Shown here piece after piece: positions 2,375-15,587 of a stretch of DNA of 64,000 bases (its first letter is position 1; each line of letters opens with the position of its first letter). Made by a program: the position numbers and the translations under genes. The notes under the pieces are model-generated. The model saw only the letters and a program-made list of their open reading frames with translations, was not told the origin of the DNA and searched no databases. Origin of the DNA: a virus (Duplodnaviria; Caudoviricetes); IMG/VR virus record IMGVR_UViG_2917752670_000006, positions 1,765 through 65,764 of that record, one strand, 5' to 3'.

Positions 2375-3613
2375 TTACTCCTTTCCTGCCATCACGGGCT
2401 CGGCAGTGTGTGCGCCTCGTTTCGTCACGGTGACTTTCCCACTGGGGTAGACGGTGACCTGCTCAAGACGGTCAAGGACTTGCTGGTCATCCCACTCACC
2501 TAATCCCAGGTGGGTGGTGATAGCGCTCTTGAGCTGGGCTTCCCTGATCTGGGGTGCCTGGCAGGGGTTGCCTTGCCCCCTCGTGGCGGTTTCGCACCAC
2601 CAGTACTTGTAGGAGACGTGCTTGCGGGTTTTGGTGCGCCGGTGGAAGCACCGCCCACACTGGCTGCACACCACCCGGTGGGTCAGCGCACACGTCCCAC
2701 CACTAGGGGTCAGTGCCCTGCCGCCGGATTGGCGTCTGCGGGCGAGCTCGTCTTGGACCCGCCTCCAGGTGGCCTGGTCGATGATGGGAGGGTTTGCTCC
2801 CTGAACCCAGTACTTGGGGAGTGCCCCGTCGTTGACGACGAGCTTTCCACCAGGACCATCGGTGTAGGTGGCTTGCAGCATTTCGTTGCCCACATAGCGG
2901 GGGTTTTCCAGCCAGGTGCGGATCACGGAGCCGAGGAAGTTTCCTCCTCCTCGTGCGCGCAGCCCCTCAGCGTTAAGGCGGTCAGCAATAGCCTCGGGGC
3001 TCACTCCGGCCAGGTACTCGTCAAACACCCGGCGCACAACCTGGGCCTCATCGTCGTTGATGTGCAGGCTTCCGCCTACCCAGGTGTAGCCGTAGATGCG
3101 GTGGGAGTTGGTAACACCGGCCTTGTACCGGTTTCGGATCGCCCACTTCACGTTCTGTGACAGGGAGCGGGATTCTTCCTGGGCGAAAGAAGCCAGCAGG
3201 GTGAGCATGAGCTCGCCTTCCGCGCTAGAGGTGTCAATGTTTTCTCTCTCGAACCGCACCGCCACCCCGAGGGCGGCTAGCTCGCGTACGCATGAGAGCA
3301 GGTCGACGGTGTTGCGGGCCAGGCGGGAGATGGACTTGACCAGCAGGATCTGGAAGTCGCCGGCTCTGGCGTGGTCCATCATGTCGGCGAACCCGGGCCT
3401 TTTTCTGGTGGTGCCGGAGATGCCTTGGTCGGTGTAGATCCCGGCGAACTGCCAGGCAGGGTTGGAGCAGATGAGCTTGGAGTAGGCAGCGACTTGTGCG
3501 GCGAGGGATCCTGCTTGGGTCTCCGACATGGTCGAGACCCGGCAGTAGGCGGCCACGCGGATGCGGCTGGTGGGTGTGCGTCGTGGTGTGATGGTCTTCA
3601 AGTCTGGGCTCAT
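2375..3613 (-). CDS. Large serine recombinase 1 (resolvase + recombinase + Zn ribbon)
   Basis: AAYCRVST, KSISRLARN, FAQEESRSLS, CSQCG motifs. Confidence 0.93.
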   Translation of the reverse strand: MSPDLKTITPRRTPTSRIRVAAYCRVSTMSETQAGSLAAQVAAYSKLICSNPAWQFAGIYTDQGISGTTRKRPGFADMMDHARAGDFQILLVKSISRLARNTVDLLSCVRELAALGVAVRFERENIDTSSAEGELMLTLLASFAQEESRSLSQNVKWAIRNRYKAGVTNSHRIYGYTWVGGSLHINDDEAQVVRRVFDEYLAGVSPEAIADRLNAEGLRARGGGNFLGSVIRTWLENPRYVGNEMLQATYTDGPGGKLVVNDGALPKYWVQGANPPIIDQATWRRVQDELARRRQSGGRALTPSGGTCALTHRVVCSQCGRCFHRRTKTRKHVSYKYWWCETATRGQGNPCQAPQIREAQLKSAITTHLGLGEWDDQQVLDRLEQVTVYPSGKVTVTKRGAHTAEPVMAGKE

Positions 3614-3875: not shown

Positions 3876-4273
3876 GGGCGTCCGCCCCGGGTTCCGAAAC
3901 GGGTGCGGATGTAGCAGGCGTGCGTGCAGTACTTGCGGTGCCTGTTGCCATACGCCTCAAAGGTCGCCCCGCAGCCGGCGCAGGTGTGGGTGGTGATGGC
4001 GCGCCGCTCAAGCATCATCGGGTGGTCGTGCCACCAGGACATGCGGCAGGCCCGGCTACAAAACCTCTGCCCACGCCGGGGCTGGTCGATGGCTTTCCCG
4101 CAGTGCTCGCACGCCCCACTGGTGGGTGTGCGTCTGGGGTGTGGGGTGATGTTGTTGCGCCGGCACCACGACTTGATCGTCTCGCGCCCCACTCCGGTTT
4201 CTCGTGCGATCTGCCCGAAGCTGGCTCCACCTTCCCTCAGTGTGATGATCTTTCGCTTCACGTGTGACTCCAT
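3872..4273 (-). CDS. HTH + Zn-ribbon regulator (sigma region-4-like HTH)
   Basis: GASFGQIARETGVGRETIKSWCRR HTH; several CxxC motifs; AAGGA RBS. Confidence 0.75.
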   Translation of the reverse strand: MESHVKRKIITLREGGASFGQIARETGVGRETIKSWCRRNNITPHPRRTPTSGACEHCGKAIDQPRRGQRFCSRACRMSWWHDHPMMLERRAITTHTCAGCGATFEAYGNRHRKYCTHACYIRTRFGTRGGRP

Positions 4274-10327: not shown

Positions 10328-12976
10328 TTATGCGGGGATCAGGCTGGCGGCGCGTGCGCGGCCTGCGATCGCCCGATCCATCAGGGGCGCCAGGCGCCCC
10401 ACCAACGTGCCGTCGGACAGGCGCACCTGGATATCGAGCCGGTCGATGACCGCTCTCGCAGCCTGGGTGGCGATAGCCTCAACATCCACACCAGCCATAG
10501 AGCCAGAACCGGTAAGCCCACCGACAGACGCTGATGCGGAGGTTCCATTGGGTGTTACGGCAACGGGGATGTTCACCCCACTGGCAAGGCCAGCCAGGGT
10601 GTCGGTGACGTCTCCTGCCATGGCCTGGGCTGCATCCACCGCACGCGCCCCGGTAGCAGTGATCCCTCCGGCGAGGCCGCAGGTGAGCATGTCACCCACC
10701 CAGGCCATCTGCTTTGAGGGTGAGTGGATCCCGAAGTAGTCGGTGATCCCATCCCAAATCGAGGCACACCAGGAGGCGACCTTGTTCCACAACCAACCAG
10801 CCAGGGACTGGATACCGTTCCATAGGCCGCGCACCAGGTTCATCCCCACGTCCGCGAGCTGCCCGTAACCTGAGGCCAGGCCGCCCACGATCGCAGAAAT
10901 AATCTGCGGCAGAGCCCCCACGATCGTGCCAATAATCTGCGGCAGCGCCGTGATCAGTGAGGTCAGCAGGCGGATACCAGCTTGGACCAGCTGTGGCAGT
11001 GCTGCCAGCAGGGCGGCTATGACGGCGGCGATGATGGTTGGCATCGCGGCCACCAGGGTCTGAATAATCTGCGGCAGGGCCCCGATCAGGGCTGTGAGAA
11101 GCCGGATGCCGGCATCGATCAACTGCGGAATCGCAGTCAAGATCCCGGTCACGATGCTGGTGATGATCTGCGGCAGGGCCGCCACAATGGCCTCAATGAT
11201 CGTCGGCAACGCCGTCACAATCGAAGTGAGCAGTTGGAGGCCGGCATCAATGATCATGGGGATCGCAGCAATGATGAAGTCCACCAGCGCCTGAATAATC
11301 GCCAGTAGTGCCTCAATGAGCACCGGCAGGGCTTGGATCAACCCCTGGGCCAAGCCCATGATCAGCTGCAAGGCTGCGGCAAGGATCATCGGCAGGTTGT
11401 CTGCCAACACCTGCACCATCGCGGCAAGGACCTCGGCCATCCCGACCAGCAGACTGGGAAGTCCCTGTCCGATACCGTCGATGAAGGCGGTGAGAATCTG
11501 TACCCCGACCTCAAGCAGGCCAGGAAGCAAGTTCAAGATCCCACCGATCACGGTGGTGACCATCGTGGAGGCCAAGGTGGCGATACTCGGCCCCATGGTG
11601 GACAGGGACTGGACGATGGTGTCCAAGGTTTTGAGCAGTTCCACCCCGATCTTGGGAACCTCTGTGACGAGGAACTGGGTGGCTTGCTCCACCACCGTGC
11701 CCAGGGCCTGGAGTAGGCCAGCCACCCCGCCTGTCTCGAAACCAGTCGTGAGGGCATCGACCCAGGAGTTCACCGCCGGCAGCGCCGTGGAGGCCAACAT
11801 GGATGACAGGCCCCCAGCCAGCGCGCCTTTAAGTCCTGCCATCCCGTCTTGCAGGGTCGAAACCTGCCCGGAGAAGGTCTTGGACTGGGCTTCCATCGCC
11901 CCATAAAACTGGCCACCCTCCGCCGTCGCCGAGGCGAAGGCGTCAGCGACCATGTCGGCGCTGATCGCGCCTTTTTCCATCTCCTCTTTGAGCTCACCGA
12001 CACTCTTACCGGTCTTCTTGGACATCTCCTGCAGGGGGTTGAACCCGGCGTTGATCATCTGCAACAGATCCTGCCCAGAGAGCTTGCCCGCAGAAGACAC
12101 CTGTGCGAAGGCGAGCGTGAGGGATTCGAGTTTTTGCGCATCCCCCTGGGAGATATCACCCAGCTGTCCTAGGCGTAGCTTCGCCTCATCCGCACTCATG
12201 CCGAACGCCATGAGGGTTTGGGTGTTTTTGGCCAGATCCTCCATCCCAAACGGAGTCTTCGCGGCCGTGACTTTCAGGTCGTTGACCAACTGCTGGGCCT
12301 TAGCCTGATCTCCCAGCATCGTGGTAAAGCTCGTGGTGTACTGCTCCATCGAGGCGTTGTAGGCAACACCGTCCTTCATCGCCTGGGCAAACCCGCGACC
12401 AATACCCGCGATCGCCCCGCCAATAGCCTTGACCCCGCCGATGATCGCCTCAGCAGCAAGGTTTGCTTTCAGGACATCACCGAAGATGCCGGTCTTACCC
12501 GCGGTGTCGTCGAGCTCGCCGCCGAGTTCGTCGACCTCGCGGGAGAGCTTGTCCGCCCCGGATGCCGCGTCCTTGAGCTCGCCCTCCGAGCTGCCTGCCG
12601 CGGTGGTGAGCTCGTCGATCTTGGCGGTGTTCTCACCGAGTTCGCGCTCCATGTCGTTAAGCGTGGCGGTGGCGTTGTTGAGCTGGATGCGCCAGTTCTG
12701 GGTGCGCGAATCCGACTGGCCGAAGGAGGCTGAGGCGTTGTCCAGTGCGGCCTTGAGTGCCTGGATCTTGGAGCGTTGGGCTTCGTTCTCTTTGCCGAGC
12801 ACCTGGTTGCGGGCGGTCAGGGCGTCAGCGTCGGTGGCGTTCTTACCGAACTGGGAGGCCACCACCTTCATCTCGGAGCCAAGCACCCGCATCTCACGGT
12901 TGATGTCCGCGATCGCCTTCTTGAACTCCCACTCACCCTCCAGGCCGATCTTGAGACCAAAAGTGCTATCAGCCAT
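10328..12976 (-). CDS. Tail tape measure protein
   Basis: FGLKIGLEGE N-terminus, AAKTPF tape-measure motif, LPQII repeats, FGIHSPS. Confidence 0.93.
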   Translation of the reverse strand: MADSTFGLKIGLEGEWEFKKAIADINREMRVLGSEMKVVASQFGKNATDADALTARNQVLGKENEAQRSKIQALKAALDNASASFGQSDSRTQNWRIQLNNATATLNDMERELGENTAKIDELTTAAGSSEGELKDAASGADKLSREVDELGGELDDTAGKTGIFGDVLKANLAAEAIIGGVKAIGGAIAGIGRGFAQAMKDGVAYNASMEQYTTSFTTMLGDQAKAQQLVNDLKVTAAKTPFGMEDLAKNTQTLMAFGMSADEAKLRLGQLGDISQGDAQKLESLTLAFAQVSSAGKLSGQDLLQMINAGFNPLQEMSKKTGKSVGELKEEMEKGAISADMVADAFASATAEGGQFYGAMEAQSKTFSGQVSTLQDGMAGLKGALAGGLSSMLASTALPAVNSWVDALTTGFETGGVAGLLQALGTVVEQATQFLVTEVPKIGVELLKTLDTIVQSLSTMGPSIATLASTMVTTVIGGILNLLPGLLEVGVQILTAFIDGIGQGLPSLLVGMAEVLAAMVQVLADNLPMILAAALQLIMGLAQGLIQALPVLIEALLAIIQALVDFIIAAIPMIIDAGLQLLTSIVTALPTIIEAIVAALPQIITSIVTGILTAIPQLIDAGIRLLTALIGALPQIIQTLVAAMPTIIAAVIAALLAALPQLVQAGIRLLTSLITALPQIIGTIVGALPQIISAIVGGLASGYGQLADVGMNLVRGLWNGIQSLAGWLWNKVASWCASIWDGITDYFGIHSPSKQMAWVGDMLTCGLAGGITATGARAVDAAQAMAGDVTDTLAGLASGVNIPVAVTPNGTSASASVGGLTGSGSMAGVDVEAIATQAARAVIDRLDIQVRLSDGTLVGRLAPLMDRAIAGRARAASLIPA

Positions 12977-13000
12977 GCGTGTGCCTTTCTGGGGATACGG

Positions 13001-13030
13001 AAAAGCCCCATCACATCCTGTGATGGGGGC
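13001..13030 (-). terminator. Intrinsic terminator closing the Abi moron
   Basis: CCCCATCAC/GTGATGGGG stem followed by TTTT on the minus strand. Confidence 0.7.
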
Positions 13031-13124
13031 AGTGATCAGTTGGGGATCTGTTGCGGCGAGCGATTCGCTGTCTAGCGTCAGAGCATGGGTTAGGAGGCAG
13101 TCTGGGTGTGTAGCGCCAGGTTTT

Positions 13125-13191
13125 TGCTAGAGTGGTGGCAATCGTTCAGCCCGCCTCAGCCCTTGTGCTGGGAGTGGGCTGGATCTTTATT
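13125..13191 (+). ncRNA. Candidate small RNA unit 1 (extended -10, bulged hairpin, U-rich tail)
   Basis: TG-C-TAGAGT at 13125-13133; stem TTCAGCCCGC-CTCAGC / GCTGGG-A-GTGGGCTGGA at 13145-13183 with G-U pairs on the + strand; then TCTTTATT. Confidence 0.45.
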
Positions 13192-13292
13192 CGCACCCAG
13201 AAGGAGAGGGATACTTTGCCCGCTCAAACCGGGCTACAGGTCGGCGGACAAAGGTGCTGAGGCACTCAGATGTCGAGCGGTCCAAGGTCCTC

Positions 13293-13382
13293 TAGGCTCC
13301 CGTTGCAGCTACGTACTAAACTGGTCTTACCAGTACCGGCTCGCCACGTCTTCGGATGTGGTCAGAGCCGGTCGTCATTTTT
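13293..13382 (+). ncRNA. Candidate small RNA unit 2 (promoter, UUCG hairpin, U5)
   Basis: TAGGCT-N18-TAAACT; ACCGGCTC-GCCACGTC-TTCG-GATGTGGT-CA-GAGCCGGT at 13335-13372; then TTTTT. Confidence 0.55.
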
Positions 13383-13405
13383 GTCTGGCTCGTGGCAATG
13401 TCGCC

Positions 13406-13496
13406 TGGATGTGTGTGGCGATCGTTGGGTATTATCGATACCAACACGACCGGTTCCGCTGCCCATCCTGATGGGAGTCCAGGGCCGGCCCCTTTT
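13406..13496 (+). ncRNA. Candidate small RNA unit 3 (paralogous to unit 2)
   Basis: TGGATG-N18-TATTAT; CCGGTTC..CCCAT-CCTG-ATGGG..CAGGGCCGG; then TTTT. Confidence 0.5.
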
Positions 13497-13536
13497 GCTA
13501 ATGCAACCCGATCCATCAAAACTAGGCTGATCGGGC

Positions 13537-14184
13537 CTATTTCGTGATCTGCATATTTTCTTCCAGCCAAGCTCGAGCATTCGGATCAATCCACTCCATC
13601 AGCAGGCGTGCGCGGCGAAAATCAGCGTCAAGATCGCGACGAAACACAGGTTCGAGATGGGCTGCCCGATTACGAATGAAAGTCATGCCATGCATCGCTT
13701 TAGCTACCTGCTGTTGACGCTTCAATGCGTCTTTATCGCCATGAGGAAAAGCGTGCTGAATTGCAGGCATCCACAGCGTGGTCAAGTAACGCTTTGTAGT
13801 AAGGAAGCGCCAGAACCCGAAAGAAAGCTCAGCCACGAGATGAGGATGATCAACACGGTTACCTGAACGACGCACTCGCTGCCGTGCAATGCGAATGTCA
13901 TCTTGCGCTTTCGCGTCCAACACAGGAAGGTCGAACCAGTCATTGACGTGTCCGGTATGAGCTACATAGCCCGTCAGTGCACGGTCTATGGCATTGCGTG
14001 ACACTACCTCTACCATTGCGGTAATTGCCTGAATAGAGGAAGCAATATCGATATTTCGCCGATACAGTGTGAAGGCATCCTCAATGTCTCCGCTACAGGC
14101 GTCAAGGTAGGTGGATATGCGCTCAGGGGTGATGAGACGCATCATGACCTGGGGGTCCCAGCCGCGTGCTCCCGTACTAGGCAT
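13537..14184 (-). CDS. Abi-like (Abi_2/AbiF-AbiD superfamily) HEPN protein, moron
   Basis: ERISTY, LY.RN, EV..RN, LVAELSFGFW, HEPN RxxxxH motif RNRAAH; AGGAAGG RBS; lower GC. Confidence 0.85.
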   Translation of the reverse strand: MPSTGARGWDPQVMMRLITPERISTYLDACSGDIEDAFTLYRRNIDIASSIQAITAMVEVVSRNAIDRALTGYVAHTGHVNDWFDLPVLDAKAQDDIRIARQRVRRSGNRVDHPHLVAELSFGFWRFLTTKRYLTTLWMPAIQHAFPHGDKDALKRQQQVAKAMHGMTFIRNRAAHLEPVFRRDLDADFRRARLLMEWIDPNARAWLEENMQITK

Positions 14185-14315
14185 AAACTACCTTCCTGTG
14201 CTAGTATGGCTCGCGAAGACCCCGGAACGATCACCAGCTTCGGCTGCATCGCCGGGGTTACGCCTTTTCTCAGGCCTTCCAGCTGGTAGTACCTGCACGG
14301 CAGGTGCTGCCAGAT
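14178..14315 (+). ncRNA. Candidate small RNA unit 4, divergent from the Abi-like gene (possible cognate antitoxin)
   Basis: TAGGCA-N18-TAGTAT with TG extension; GACCCCGG..CGAT..CAGC-TTCG-GCTG..ATCG-CCGGGGTT; CCTTTTCT; second G-U-containing hairpin at 14284-14312. Confidence 0.6.
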
Positions 14316-14362
14316 AGTGTTCTACCGAGGTTTTTCCTATTCTACCCCGCCCTTGGTTTGGC

Positions 14363-14973
14363 TTAGATCCCTGTGGGGATAACCGCATCAATCGTCACCT
14401 GCGCGTTGGTGCGGCTGGGTTGTTCGTGTTGCCAGTGGCATTCGACCAGGTCCAGCAGTACGCCTAGTGGGAGCAGTGCGCTCTGCCAGCGGTCCAGGTG
14501 CAGGTAGCGGTGGGCCAGATAGGTCAGTCTCGTGAGGGTTTCGGCCCATCCACTGCCTGTGGGTGTGCTGGTTAGGCTTTTGGGGAGGTAACCTCACGGC
14601 GCATTCCCGCCTCCAGGGCAGCGGTGATCGCGTCCTTGTAGTCAGCAAGCTCCCCGGGAACGGTGAGCAGCTCAATGGCCTCCGCGGTGATCTCGTCGTG
14701 CGGGTCGTGCGGGTGGGTGAGGTTGTGGATCAACACGGACTGGTTGGCCAGCAGGGCGATCAACCAGCAGATTTCACCGATCTGCTCACCCACATCACTA
14801 GAGGCTTCGAGCTTGTCGACAAGCTGCTCAAGCCCCCCGTAGCGGGAAGCGATCTCTCGGGTGGCGCGGGTGGTCAGCACCAGCTCCAGGTCTCGCCCAC
14901 CCAGGCGGATGAACGCGGAGTGTCCCGGACCTTCGGGCAGCACGCTGGTGGGGGTCTTCTTCTTGGGTGCCAT
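14363..14973 (-). CDS. Tail assembly chaperone G (14572..14973) and G-T fusion via -1 frameshift at CCCAAAA
   Basis: LVLTTRATREIASRYGGLE; slippery C CCA AAA at 14578-14584; -1 frame reads ..LTRLTYLAH..PLGVLLDLVECH..IDAVIPTGI*. Confidence 0.8.
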
Positions 14974-14984
14974 GCGTGTCCTCC

Positions 14985-15587
14985 TTAGTTGCTAGTGCCC
15001 GCGGTGGTTGTGGTGTAGGCCGGTTCGTACACGGCCTTGAACCAGGCGTCGGTGATGGACTTGGCGGCCTCGCCTTCGGTGGTTTCCACCTTCCACGGGT
15101 GCTTGCCTGAGGTGTCGGGCTTAGTGCGGTGCAGGATCGTGCCCTCGATCTCGGGGGTGGAGAATTCAATCGAGTCGCCCTTGGTGGCAAGGGATGCGGT
15201 GGGGACGGCGAAGCGGACCTTGCAGAGCCAGAAGTAGCGGTAGGTGCCACCCGCTTTGCGGGCACGGAACCCGATCGCCACTGGCGCCCCACCATCCTCG
15301 GATGTGGAGACCAGTACCTTGTTCTTATCCACGACCGCGCCAACCAGGTCTGCTGCAACCTCGACACTAATGTCATCCACACCCAGGGTGAGGGTGTCGG
15401 ATTTGAATTCCTTGACGACCTCGGCCGGTCCGTCGTCGGCATACAGGATCGCTTCAGCGACTTCGATGGACACCTCCGCGCTGATTGCCTTGGCCAGATG
15501 CTTGGGTGTGCCGTAGGTTTCCTCTCCGGTGGTGGGGTTTTCCGTGATGGTCGCGTAGAAAAGACTGTCGAGTCCGATGGTTGCCAT
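14985..15587 (-). CDS. Major tail protein (phi13 family)
   Basis: MATIGLDSLFYA, LYADDG, VAIGFRA, TKGDSIEFSTP. Confidence 0.92.
   Translation of the reverse strand: MATIGLDSLFYATITENPTTGEETYGTPKHLAKAISAEVSIEVAEAILYADDGPAEVVKEFKSDTLTLGVDDISVEVAADLVGAVVDKNKVLVSTSEDGGAPVAIGFRARKAGGTYRYFWLCKVRFAVPTASLATKGDSIEFSTPEIEGTILHRTKPDTSGKHPWKVETTEGEAAKSITDAWFKAVYEPAYTTTTAGTSN

Follow-up and report, generated by a model that had tools for sequence, protein, structure and literature searches.

Hairpin units in the tail gene region

The window analysed here, a 64,000-nt stretch of a tailed-phage genome, carries a set of small hairpin units in the interval between its tape measure and tail assembly chaperone genes (Table 1). 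As the first-pass annotation had described, three + strand units lie inside positions 13125-13496, each running from a -10 box through a bulged hairpin into a U-rich tail, and a fourth lies beyond a minus-strand gene, P0001; all four are found where that annotation had put them. In unit 2 the hairpin loop is UUCG and the bulge CA; in unit 3 the outer stem includes two U-G pairs and the bulge is CCA. Unit 4 is divergent from P0001, its -10 box separating the hairpin from the start codon of P0001.

Table 1. Features of the interval between the tape measure and tail chaperone genes, numbered from the first nucleotide of the window
Feature	Position	Strand	Description and source
Tape measure protein gene	10328-12976	-	Pfam TMP_3, PHROG 58
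Terminator-like hairpin	13006-13028	-	Consensus scan; just before the tape measure RBS; left border of the inserted cassette
Unit 1	13125-13193	+	Extended -10 TGn-TAGAGT 13125-13133; 11 nt; hairpin 13145-13183 with bulged A; U-rich tail 13184-13193
Unit 2	13317-13385	+	-10 TAAACT 13317-13322; start expected at ~13329; 5' UACCA; hairpin 13335-13372; U tract to ~13385
Unit 3	13430-13499	+	-10 TATTAT 13430-13435; start expected at ~13440-13443; hairpin 13449-13488; U tract to ~13499
Terminator-like hairpin	13523-13539	-	Consensus scan; overlaps the P0001 stop codon
P0001	13537-14184	-	215-aa compact Abi_2-like HEPN protein with RNRxxH motif; profile comparison, PADLOC
Unit 4	14197-14272	+	Extended -10 TGTGCTAGTAT 14197-14207; 11 nt; three-part hairpin 14219-14258; U-rich tail to ~14272
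Tail assembly chaperone ORFs	14388-14973	-	14572-14973 and overlapping 14388-14675; PHROG 2115 for 14572-14973; ORF list

When folded and compared with shuffled sequences, the + strand of positions 12977-13536 is clearly the more structured (z -3.73, with none of 100 shuffles as good), against z -1.60 and 6 of 100 shuffles for the - strand. Together with the G-U pairs of the units 2 and 3 family described below (134 of 661 pairs in 47 units), this agrees with the strand originally favoured. Units 1-4 are absent from the list of a consensus terminator scan, although they have hairpins and U-rich tails, because their stems are bulged and a simple scan misses them; no + strand gene ends before any of them. 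The earlier term ‘tandem array’ does not fit, since a repeat search of the stretch gave no array of near-identical repeats and the units belong to different classes that differ in sequence, only 2 and 3 being alike.

Searches against known genes and RNAs left the stretch without an assignment. The four ORFs across it (84-121 aa among them) matched no Pfam or PHROG family and are broken in relatives by indels of 26 and 4 nt, in keeping with the previous statement that no convincing ORF is present. Searches for tRNA and tmRNA found none in the window, Rfam gave no family at E<=10 in 12500-15000 or 13090-13540 (chance-level rows only), and the sole match among public phage records was 78 nt long and fell in the tape measure gene.

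We consider that the + strand of the stretch, which is antisense to the tail operon, probably carries three distinct small-RNA genes, and by its layout each unit should give an RNA of ~50-60 nt from its own -10 promoter to its U-rich terminator. A search of RNA libraries returned one run, matching a tenth of the sampled words, with a single 265-nt contig at 13707-13971, inside P0001. Nothing from the units appeared in this run or two sister runs, which is neither support nor evidence of absence given that such libraries and contigs miss RNAs of 55 nt.

RNA families of units 1-3 and their link to Abi_2 genes

Units 1-3 represent two RNA families, one of unit 1 and the other of units 2 and 3 as two subclasses. 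The model built for the latter, R1 (unit 2 in class A, unit 3 in class B), matches only units 2 (67.4 bits) and 3 (63.2 bits) in the 64-kb window, bearing out the likeness already noted between them. R1 separates pattern matches cleanly, with 36 of 93 loci at 53.8 bits or more and the remainder at or below 26.8 bits, and it scores at least 33 bits in 41 of the 80 metagenome loci listed. Ten of 31 extra metagenome loci (L175-L205) reach at least 35 bits and were left out of the Abi_2 counts; L206-L208 are viral.

At 53 of the 77 R1 loci examined (28/36 and 25/41), the unit is directly upstream of a Pfam Abi_2 gene on the same strand, with the start codon a few tens of nucleotides past it. Many of the loci belong to the L013 family, a single element present in near-identical copies. 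In the other 24 of 77, no Abi_2 gene could be detected behind the unit, and in L101, L156, L168 and L174 an R1 unit lies amid ordinary chromosomal genes.

For structure and strand statistics we used 47 unique R1 units, filtered from 148 regex cores. In 43 of these the + strand gives the stabler fold, and in 34 a TAnnnT box starts 18-19 nt ahead of the stem, compared with 4.5% of random windows. Their inner hairpins average -8.07 kcal/mol when cognate and -4.7 when chimeric, with none of 2000 permutations reaching the cognate value. The inner stems covary: other members of the unit 2 class have different inner stems, and in an alignment of 26 sequences of the unit 3 class (A7), pair 22-42 is UA in 16 and CG in 9, the two U-G pairs are invariant, and G-U occurs in 22 of 26. 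Conserved along with these wobble pairs are the unpaired 5' ACCA and the CCA or CA bulge, the invariance of the outer stem and of 5' ACCA being partly by construction because the retrieval pattern fixed both.

In the unit-1 class, an alignment of eight sequences (A8) has 97.5% of its cells paired, four pairs changed on both sides, and an invariant U-G and G-U. Unit 1 itself is 94% identical in L037, and members of its class, with the same 11-nt gap to the -10 box, immediately precede Pfam Abi_2 genes in L212 (E 6.8e-49) and L254. Thus all three classes occur directly before Abi_2/AbiF genes elsewhere, the adjacency by which the first-pass annotation had suggested its proposal be judged, and the stems covary in A7 and A8 as well as in the unit-4 alignment A6 below, where a lack of covariation was to have counted against it.

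As an unbiased sample we took 401 genomes, 10 of which hold 13 Abi_2 places. Four of these places are led by R1 (and one more by a weak match), five by the Rfam abiF motif RF03085 and one by the unit-1 class. The five RF03085-led loci, which score 37.2-51 bits, serve as a positive control in the same class of genomes; RF03085 itself, with a gathering score of 37 bits, had no match at E<=10 in window positions 12500-15000 or 13090-13540 and none at E<=5 in eight related loci. Judging by these positions, the R1 and unit-1 families are likely to be leader or partner RNAs of Abi_2 (AbiF-type HEPN) genes elsewhere in Actinomycetota.

The same observations make it very improbable that the units serve to keep antisense transcription out of the tail genes, as ordinary intrinsic terminators or insulators, or that they belong to a small coding region. 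Every unit is indeed a GC-rich hairpin with a U-rich tail, and most unit-1-like hairpins lie in different surroundings: the one in L131 follows murI, and those in L211, L214 and L215 follow nrdH-like genes. However, no + strand gene enters the units, their -10 hexamers keep a fixed spacing, the conserved unpaired nucleotides and wobbles exceed what a terminator needs, and unit position is tied to Abi_2 start codons; the ORFs that cross the stretch, the one point for coding, are those without family match and broken in relatives. Integron attC-like DNA recombination sites were also set aside, given the fixed -10 boxes, the U tails and no integrase seen nearby.

The compact Abi_2 homologue P0001 and unit 4

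Compared with Pfam Abi_2 (PF07751), P0001 scores 13.6 bits (E 0.084) over its C-terminal part only, below the gathering cut-off of 25.6 bits, and its Abi_2 membership therefore rests on profile comparison. Its residues 22-215 align to residues 58-289 of canonical Abi_2 with 91% probability and E 1.1e-6 (hhalign), and the PADLOC model PD-T4-5 matches at E 1.9e-5. The previous label ‘Abi-like’ is thus upheld by profile comparison and falls short by the Pfam cut-off. A relative in L002 passes Pfam Abi_2 with 30.5 bits, some family members have a precomputed PF07751 match, and R171, N172, R173 and H176 of P0001 are invariant in 50 relatives. The AF2 model of P0001 has a pLDDT of 93; against the PDB there was no match by sequence, and Foldseek gave nothing at E<=0.001. 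By profile comparison P0001 is homologous to canonical Abi_2 over the HEPN core, and with the HEPN R-N-R-x-x-H motif kept and the gene 34 nt from unit 4, we regard it as a candidate endoribonuclease encoded beside an RNA gene.

We found the P0001 family in 41 of the 401 sampled genomes, about one in ten. Its viral relatives amount to one locus by sequence and three by profile, none of which has an R1 unit. In 25 of 33 P0001-family loci, the start codon is preceded by a unit-4-type hairpin at a distance of 21-99 nt (mostly 32-34), and the -10 hexamer of that hairpin is on the strand opposite the gene in 21 of the 25 and on the gene's strand in one. Alignment A6, with 14 sequences of the unit-4 class, has 99% of its cells paired and six pairs changed on both sides, which none of 500 shuffles reached. 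Folding energy gives no strand call for this class (10 versus 15 of 25), and its distant members carry a GCCUCU motif that resembles the abiF consensus.

Given the hairpin in 25 of 33 loci and the opposite-strand -10 box in 21 of 25, we read unit 4 as the partner RNA of P0001 and, from this position, its class as the conserved divergent partner RNA of the compact Abi_2 gene family, rather than as the further orphan that it was first taken for. Could units 2 and 3 then be extra convergent antitoxins of the neighbouring P0001? L037 has the same convergent layout with a protein 66% identical to P0001, and in L062/L219 a 29%-identical relative is followed after 160 nt by a class-B unit and lacks the unit-4-type hairpin upstream. 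Nevertheless, no R1 unit lies within 1.5 kb in any of the 31 other family loci, compared with the frequent unit-4-type hairpin, and R1 units lead canonical Abi_2 genes; we dropped units 2 and 3 as main partners of P0001 on the first of these counts, and even an additional role for them there seems improbable.

Orphan units, proposed cassette exchange and known systems

To place units 1-3 in context we gathered ten relatives of the site through the tail chaperone, a comparison that the first-pass annotation had proposed. The site is empty in L004, L005 and L006, with a chaperone-to-tape measure gap of 66-116 bp. L003 and L007 have canonical Abi_2 genes on the window's + strand (Pfam Abi_2, E 2.7e-41 and 2.1e-49), led by unit 2 in L003 and by units 2 and 3 in L007; unit 2 is nearly invariant in both, and unit 3 in L007 stops ~25 nt short of the Abi_2 start codon. 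The minus-strand hairpin at the left border is kept in the cassette-bearing relatives L003, L007, L058, L116, L118 and L161. These empty sites and Abi_2 cassettes fit the idea, already raised, of replacement. The window has no canonical + strand Abi_2 gene behind units 1-3, which are therefore orphans, as they had been called.

We believe that cassette exchange is the likely explanation for the locus as a whole: the units would be partner-RNA genes, with units 1-3 orphaned and unit 4 kept with P0001. The interval between chaperone and tape measure would be a hot spot where toxins were swapped or lost and RNA genes stayed as borders, and P0001, on the other strand between units 3 and 4, would have unit 4, transcribed divergently, as its own partner. 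RNAs of the orphan classes most likely bind the HEPN dimer and hold it inactive, as type III antitoxins do, and where a toxin gene follows, the RNA would also limit read-through into it. We propose this antitoxin role because of the analogy with RCd22/AbiF-Cd and AbiFr/PbAbiF; since the units are not matched by the Rfam abiF model, its basis is the position and topology of the RNAs rather than homology of their sequences.

An account of units 1-3 as pure relics, left from canonical Abi_2 cassettes whose toxin was deleted or replaced and perhaps transcribed but now idle, we consider somewhat unlikely, though it has several observations on its side. The cargo between units 3 and 4 varies by cassette type while the borders are common, behind unit 1 there is only an RBS-like stretch followed by a 14-codon ORF, and orphan units lie beside IS genes in L015 and L041. 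Identity between the window and L037 is 86-96% in the units, 80-95% in the spacers and 88-93% in the tail genes, and with the units conserved no better than the surrounding phage genes, selection on the orphans is not clearly indicated. Against idle relics, the -10 hexamers at family spacing, the stems and the tails of units 1-3 are all intact in both the window and L037, although with only two close genomes of this layout the time for decay may be too short. L007-type cassettes also have an orphan unit 4 ~150 nt past the Abi_2 stop that keeps its -10 box at a similar spacing (12 nt) in non-homologous upstream sequence.

A present use for the orphans might lie in anti-defence, with the prophage keeping assorted Abi_2 partner RNAs as decoys against AbiF-type toxins encoded by its host or by other mobile elements. 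Three different classes adjoin here without cognate toxin genes, each of which leads canonical Abi_2 genes elsewhere, and in G001, the genome with the L037 prophage, a class-B unit also leads a canonical Abi_2 gene at L258, a co-residence made uncertain by G001 being a metagenome bin. [quoted passage not shown] But the orientation of the units, antisense to the late tail operon, fits expression in the lysogen rather than during lytic growth, when a decoy would be needed, and the lack of excess conservation relative to L037 counts against decoys too; we rate this use as rather doubtful. Cassette exchange with orphaned partner RNAs remains our reading. We would extend it only as a speculation to temperate phages of Actinomycetota in general, in which two-sided islands between tail chaperone and tape measure genes might have on one side a compact AbiF-like toxin held by its divergent RNA and on the other assorted orphan RNAs as broad-spectrum decoys that disarm AbiF-type abortive infection by the host or by rival elements, with the RNA genes as exchange borders.

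The locus points to new RNA partners of the Abi toxin family, and to RNAs that outlive, and perhaps disarm, toxins. So far a single RNA motif, RF03085, stands for the partnership of Abi_2 with RNA. At least three further classes (R1 with its subclasses, unit-1 and unit-4), all absent from Rfam, against which we judge their novelty, occupy that place in Actinomycetota, each with a -10 box at fixed spacing in most copies. The locus also led to the compact Abi_2 family with its divergently encoded RNA. These RNA-protein pairs may help in studying the evolution of RNA specificity in the AbiF lineage, and the natural orphan RNAs could be used for cross-neutralisation and may bear on phage counter-defence. 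Better annotation of many ‘intergenic’ stretches beside Abi genes would follow.

The background to which the first-pass annotation appealed is in print. Neutralisation of AbiF by an adjacent RNA is described in the available parts of PMC12373285 and PMC12737573, which also carry the antitoxin-RNA model for AbiFr of PbAbiF, and the view that AbiF/Abi_2 toxins and their small RNA are ancestral to Cas13 and its guide RNA is given in those of PMC12165695 and PMC12737573. Like RF03085, RCd22 of Clostridioides difficile phi027 and AbiFr (8VZ6), our classes are small structured RNAs directly upstream of an Abi_2/AbiF gene, often in a prophage. They share the topology of the abiF motif (outer stem, one 5' nucleotide, inner stem-loop, asymmetric 3' bulge), and the proteins are homologous (L007 Abi_2 against PbAbiF 8VZ6, E 5.2e-28). 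RCd22, as PMC12373285 describes it in its accessible text, is transcribed from a sigma-A promoter of its own and contains two abiF motifs and a terminator, with read-through into abiF; our loci and this system share a dedicated promoter, a terminator ahead of the toxin start and, often, a tandem pair of motifs. The conserved sequences nevertheless differ, the window units and their relatives giving no match to RF03085 where true abiF motifs score 37-51 bits. In the tandem pairs that we read (units 2 and 3 of the window, L126, L160 and L116), unlike RF03085, each unit has its own -10 box, an exception being the L013 family, whose upstream unit shows none. Units 1-3 of the window also lack the + strand Abi_2 gene behind them, and the RNA of the compact family is divergent from its gene instead of upstream on the same strand.

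The resemblance to type III ToxIN systems lies in an RNA antitoxin adjoining an endoribonuclease toxin of abortive infection, here as a candidate pair, and the orphans are comparable to the PhiTE pseudo-ToxI as toxin-less antitoxin-like RNAs on a phage, with that of PhiTE serving escape. In contrast to ToxIN, there are no tandem identical repeats here and the toxin fold is HEPN, not ToxN. A likeness to type I or antisense control would lie in full complementarity of unit 4 to the leader of the P0001 mRNA, should that mRNA start upstream of the hairpin; unlike type I systems, however, the toxin here comes from an RNase family held by RNA-protein binding, and it is the abiF-like motif that distant members of the unit-4 class carry.

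Variable cargo between the tail chaperone and tape measure genes

In the window, whose record is typed as a provirus, a gap of ~1.4 kb between the tail chaperone and tape measure genes holds the compact Abi_2-like gene P0001, over which G+C falls to 0.51-0.54 (0.58-0.67 in the surroundings), and 560 nt without a credible gene. The three hairpin units that the first-pass annotation had placed in this gene-free segment were confirmed at their positions, and the additional unit that it saw beyond the Abi gene is present as unit 4; its reading of a tandem array did not hold, as a repeat search of the stretch gave no tandem repeat. The + strand of the segment folds much more stably than shuffled sequence (z -3.73), and the - strand does not go beyond shuffles (z -1.60). 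An Rfam scan of the unit region matched no family, and a tRNA search found none in the window.

Features of the window locus and their identity to the related locus L037
Feature	Window position	Strand	Identity to L037	Remarks
Tape measure gene	10328-12976	-		ORF list, profile search
Segment without credible gene	12977-13536			
Perfect 10-bp hairpin with U tail	13006-13028	-		immediately 5' of tape measure RBS
Unit 1	13125-13193	+	94%	
Unit 2	13317-13385	+	96%	
Unit 3	13430-13499	+	90%	
P0001	13537-14184	-	72%	215-aa gene inside the gap; L037 1284-1931
RNA-library contig match	13707-13971			inside P0001
Unit 4	14197-14272	+	86%	
Tail chaperone	14572-14973	-	88-93% (with major tail)	overlapped by ORF 14388-14675
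Major tail protein	14985-15587	-	88-93% (with chaperone)	ORF list, Pfam/PHROG profile search
Spacers			80-95%	

Among ten relatives retrieved via the chaperone protein, we saw three site states. The site is empty in L004, L005 and L006, with 66-116 bp and one hairpin separating chaperone and tape measure. In L003 and L007 the site is filled by an insert whose canonical Abi_2 gene runs opposite to the tail genes, on what is the window + strand (Pfam Abi_2 E 2.7e-41 and 2.1e-49), the L007 protein also matching the solved RNA-bound PbAbiF (8VZ6, E 5.2e-28). The L003 gene is directly preceded by a homologue of window 13291-13378 (unit 2) and the L007 gene by one of 13291-13495 (units 2 and 3), whose last hairpin ends ~25 nt before the start codon. 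The tape measure hairpin is kept in cassette-bearing relatives, and empty-site prophages show a different hairpin at this junction.

Homology between the window type and the L007 type stops at the unit 3 tail (13495) and restarts shortly ahead of the unit 4 hairpin, at 14210. Two kinds of cargo stand between these borders: L007, L058, L116, L118, L139, L164 and L167 have a canonical Abi_2 gene in + orientation, and the window and L037 have the compact gene in - orientation. L007-type cassettes retain an orphan unit 4, with a -10 spacing of 12 nt (11 in the window) and unrelated sequence upstream, and the window type retains orphan units 2 and 3, with orphan unit 1 on a further 260 nt that is absent from L003 and L007. 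The complete window layout recurs in L037, from a Propionibacteriaceae bin, with a P0001 protein 66% identical. The outlier in this comparison is the toxin gene, with 72% DNA identity against 86-96% in the flanks, suggesting allele exchange or fast toxin evolution. The orphan units are no more conserved than the surrounding phage and, with L037 as the one close relative, selection on them can be neither demonstrated nor excluded. Elsewhere in the L037 genome, at L258, a class-B unit leads a canonical Abi_2 gene; this fits a decoy role but is evidence from a bin. Within P0001, a 265-nt contig from an RNA library ('whole organism metagenome') matches with five differences, which weakly suggests transcription of a closely related gene, or else DNA carry-over; the RNA libraries gave this one contig, with no match on the units.

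Units 2 and 3 as one RNA family and its Abi_2 neighbours

Units 2 (class A) and 3 (class B) belong to one RNA family. Scanning with a pattern of the letters common to both gave 14 loci in viral contigs, 68 in genome contigs and 111 stretches in metagenome contigs, 80 of them listed. A covariance model trained on 20 units, R1, has no match in the window apart from units 2 (67 bits) and 3 (63 bits), and it separates true from chance pattern matches without overlap, 36 of 93 loci scoring at least 53.8 bits and the rest at most 26.8; it reaches at least 33 bits in 41 of the 80 listed metagenome loci. One rejected pattern match, L056, is a genuine tRNA end followed by a terminator. True genome loci are named Actinomycetota in 19 of 21 cases (Actinomyces, Varibaculum, Mobiluncus, Gleimia, Winkia, Arcanobacterium, Actinobaculum, Actinotignum, Corynebacterium, Propionibacteriaceae, Propionimicrobium, Alloscardovia and Jiangella); two bins named Clostridia and Urmitella make up the rest.

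From 5' to 3', the consensus comprises a TAnnnT box (frequently with TGn before it), a short gap of a few nucleotides, ACCA, an outer stem of 8 bp (ACCGGYUC with GRGCCGGU), 0-1 unpaired nucleotide, an inner stem-loop that varies freely in length and sequence, a bulge of CA or CCA, and a U-rich tail. The ACCA recalls a tRNA 3' end. Statistics were drawn from 47 unique units filtered out of 148 regex cores. In 43 of the 47 the + strand RNA folds more stably than the other strand, and G-U accounts for 134 of 661 pairs. The mean energy of the inner hairpin is -8.07 kcal/mol for cognate halves and -4.7 for chimeric combinations of 5' and 3' halves, and the cognate mean was reached in 0 of 2000 permutations. 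In 34 of 47 units a TAnnnT begins at a distance of 18-19 nt ahead of the stem, compared with 4.5% of random windows. In class B (n = 26) two outer-stem U-G pairs are invariant, although the search patterns fix outer stem and ACCA, so that invariance there is partly by construction; promoter box, inner stems and tails were free of this constraint. The class-B inner stem is closed by G-U in 22 of 26 units; of the variable pairs, the next one along is UA in 16 units and CG in 9.

The association with Abi genes proposed in the first-pass annotation was borne out: a same-strand Abi_2 gene starts a few tens of nt downstream at 14 of 15 viral, 14 of 21 genome and 25 of 41 metagenome loci (the last from 80 listed of 111), counts that include many copies of one element, the L013 family, near-identical across several genera. 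At least five Abi_2 lineages, with mutual identities of 34-50%, are led by these units. Of the units without Abi_2 behind them, some are followed by IS genes (L015, L041), some are cut by contig ends (L117, L148, L165) and others stand alone amid other genes (L027, L028, L061, L077, L099, L101/L156/L168/L174, L144). In an unbiased sample, a Pfam Abi_2 search of 401 genomes from the class of L037 found 13 places in 10 genomes, preceded by an R1 unit in four (L257, L258, L259, L262), by a weak R1 match in L252, by the Rfam abiF motif RF03085 in five (L253, L255, L256, L260, L261; 37-51 bits) and by a unit-1-type hairpin in L254. Thus, almost all canonical Abi_2 genes in this sample are led by an RNA of some class, and the RF03085 matches indicate that the Rfam scan works in these genomes.

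Several arrangements recur among these loci. The L013-type cassette, which runs from a class-B unit through a class-A unit to the gene, is near-identical in L013, L014, L017-L026, L036, L040, L042, L047, L051, L053, L055, L063, L065 and L081; the records that carry it are named Varibaculum, Mobiluncus, Gleimia, Arcanobacterium, Winkia, Corynebacterium and Propionimicrobium, and this near-identity across genera suggests recent horizontal spread. In L015 (9469-9800) and L041 (3532-3861) the same unit pair is followed by another hairpin and IS3-like transposase ORFs without Abi_2, and is an orphan by insertion or replacement. A third subclass, whose inner part starts UUAC (L126 3594-3802, L157, L160, L165, L183), is always paired with a short class-B unit, which follows it at ~90 nt, and the two precede one Abi_2 gene. 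Several Abi_2 cassettes with leader RNA also lie ~90 nt after a tRNA gene (L049 1828-1900, L257 1159-1231, L261 1032-1104, L213 about 3460-3510), a placement resembling that of genomic islands.

Unit 1, unit 4 and the compact toxin gene

Searching with the outer-stem pattern of unit 1 gave seven viral loci, one a chance match within a gene. In the eight distinct sequences of this class 97.5% of cells are paired, the outer stem being fixed by construction, and four inner pairs are changed on both sides, with one U-G and one G-U invariant. A -10 box lies 11-12 nt before the stem in window unit 1, L212, L254 and L131. The hairpin stands directly before Abi_2 in L212 (E 6.8e-49) and L254, 3' of murI in L131, and after other genes without a -10 box in L209, L211/L214/L215 and L213. 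Given these mixed contexts, the Abi_2 link of unit 1 is real but looser. In L131 the hairpin (3948-4004) has a promoter-like TTGACA-N17-TTTGAT site and lies between murI and an MBL-fold gene, with an R1 unit and Abi_2 gene ~1 kb beyond.

P0001 scores under the Pfam cut-off for Abi_2. Its family (over 100 clusters, proteins of 215-230 aa, present in 41 of 401 sampled genomes) aligns with canonical Abi_2 at 91% profile probability (E 1.1e-6), lacks roughly the first 40-57 residues and has an invariant R-N-R-x-x-H. No R1 unit was found beside family genes in 31 further loci. A CCCCGG...CCGGGG hairpin lies upstream of the start codon in 25 of 33 loci, at 21-99 nt and mostly 32-34, the 99 coming from L218, where the script chose a different hairpin. 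TAnnnT stands 10-11 nt from this hairpin on the strand opposite the gene in 21 of 25 cases and on the gene's strand in one, and the U-rich tail is also on the opposite strand, so that unit 4 reads as a divergently oriented small-RNA gene next to the compact toxin gene; its strand is not settled by folding energy alone. In the close subclass (14 sequences) 99% of cells are paired and six pairs are changed on both sides, a result that 0 of 500 shuffles reach. Distant members carry, on the strand opposite the gene, GCCUCU, which is also part of the RF03085 consensus. Unit 4 is likely the partner of P0001; by geometry, its RNA would also be antisense to the toxin leader should transcription of the toxin gene begin upstream of the hairpin. 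A second Actinotignum locus, L221 (G002:C2, 1525-2031), has a unit 4 hairpin 96% like that of the window; the P0001-like gene beside it (53-58% identity) is broken into two frames, apparently a copy in decay.

Proposed partnership and known systems

By analogy, units 2/3 and unit 1 would be antitoxin-type RNAs for canonical Abi_2 toxins, orphaned in the window through cassette exchange, and unit 4 would serve the compact toxin. Their transcription and binding, like any role the orphans may have today, are what we infer. The partnership of Abi_2 with RNA is already known. To our knowledge, new are RNA classes absent from Rfam that show covariation and a fixed promoter spacing, a compact Abi_2 family with a divergent RNA, natural sets of orphan RNAs in prophages, and the chaperone-tape-measure junction as an exchange site bordered by RNA genes.

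[quoted passage not shown] Two different hairpins per toxin gene are likewise common among R1 loci, comparable to the two abiF motifs of RCd22. By position and topology, the window RNA classes occupy the place of RCd22 and AbiFr, known RNA partners of AbiF toxins, and units 1-3 and unit 4 are therefore read as putative toxin-partner RNAs.
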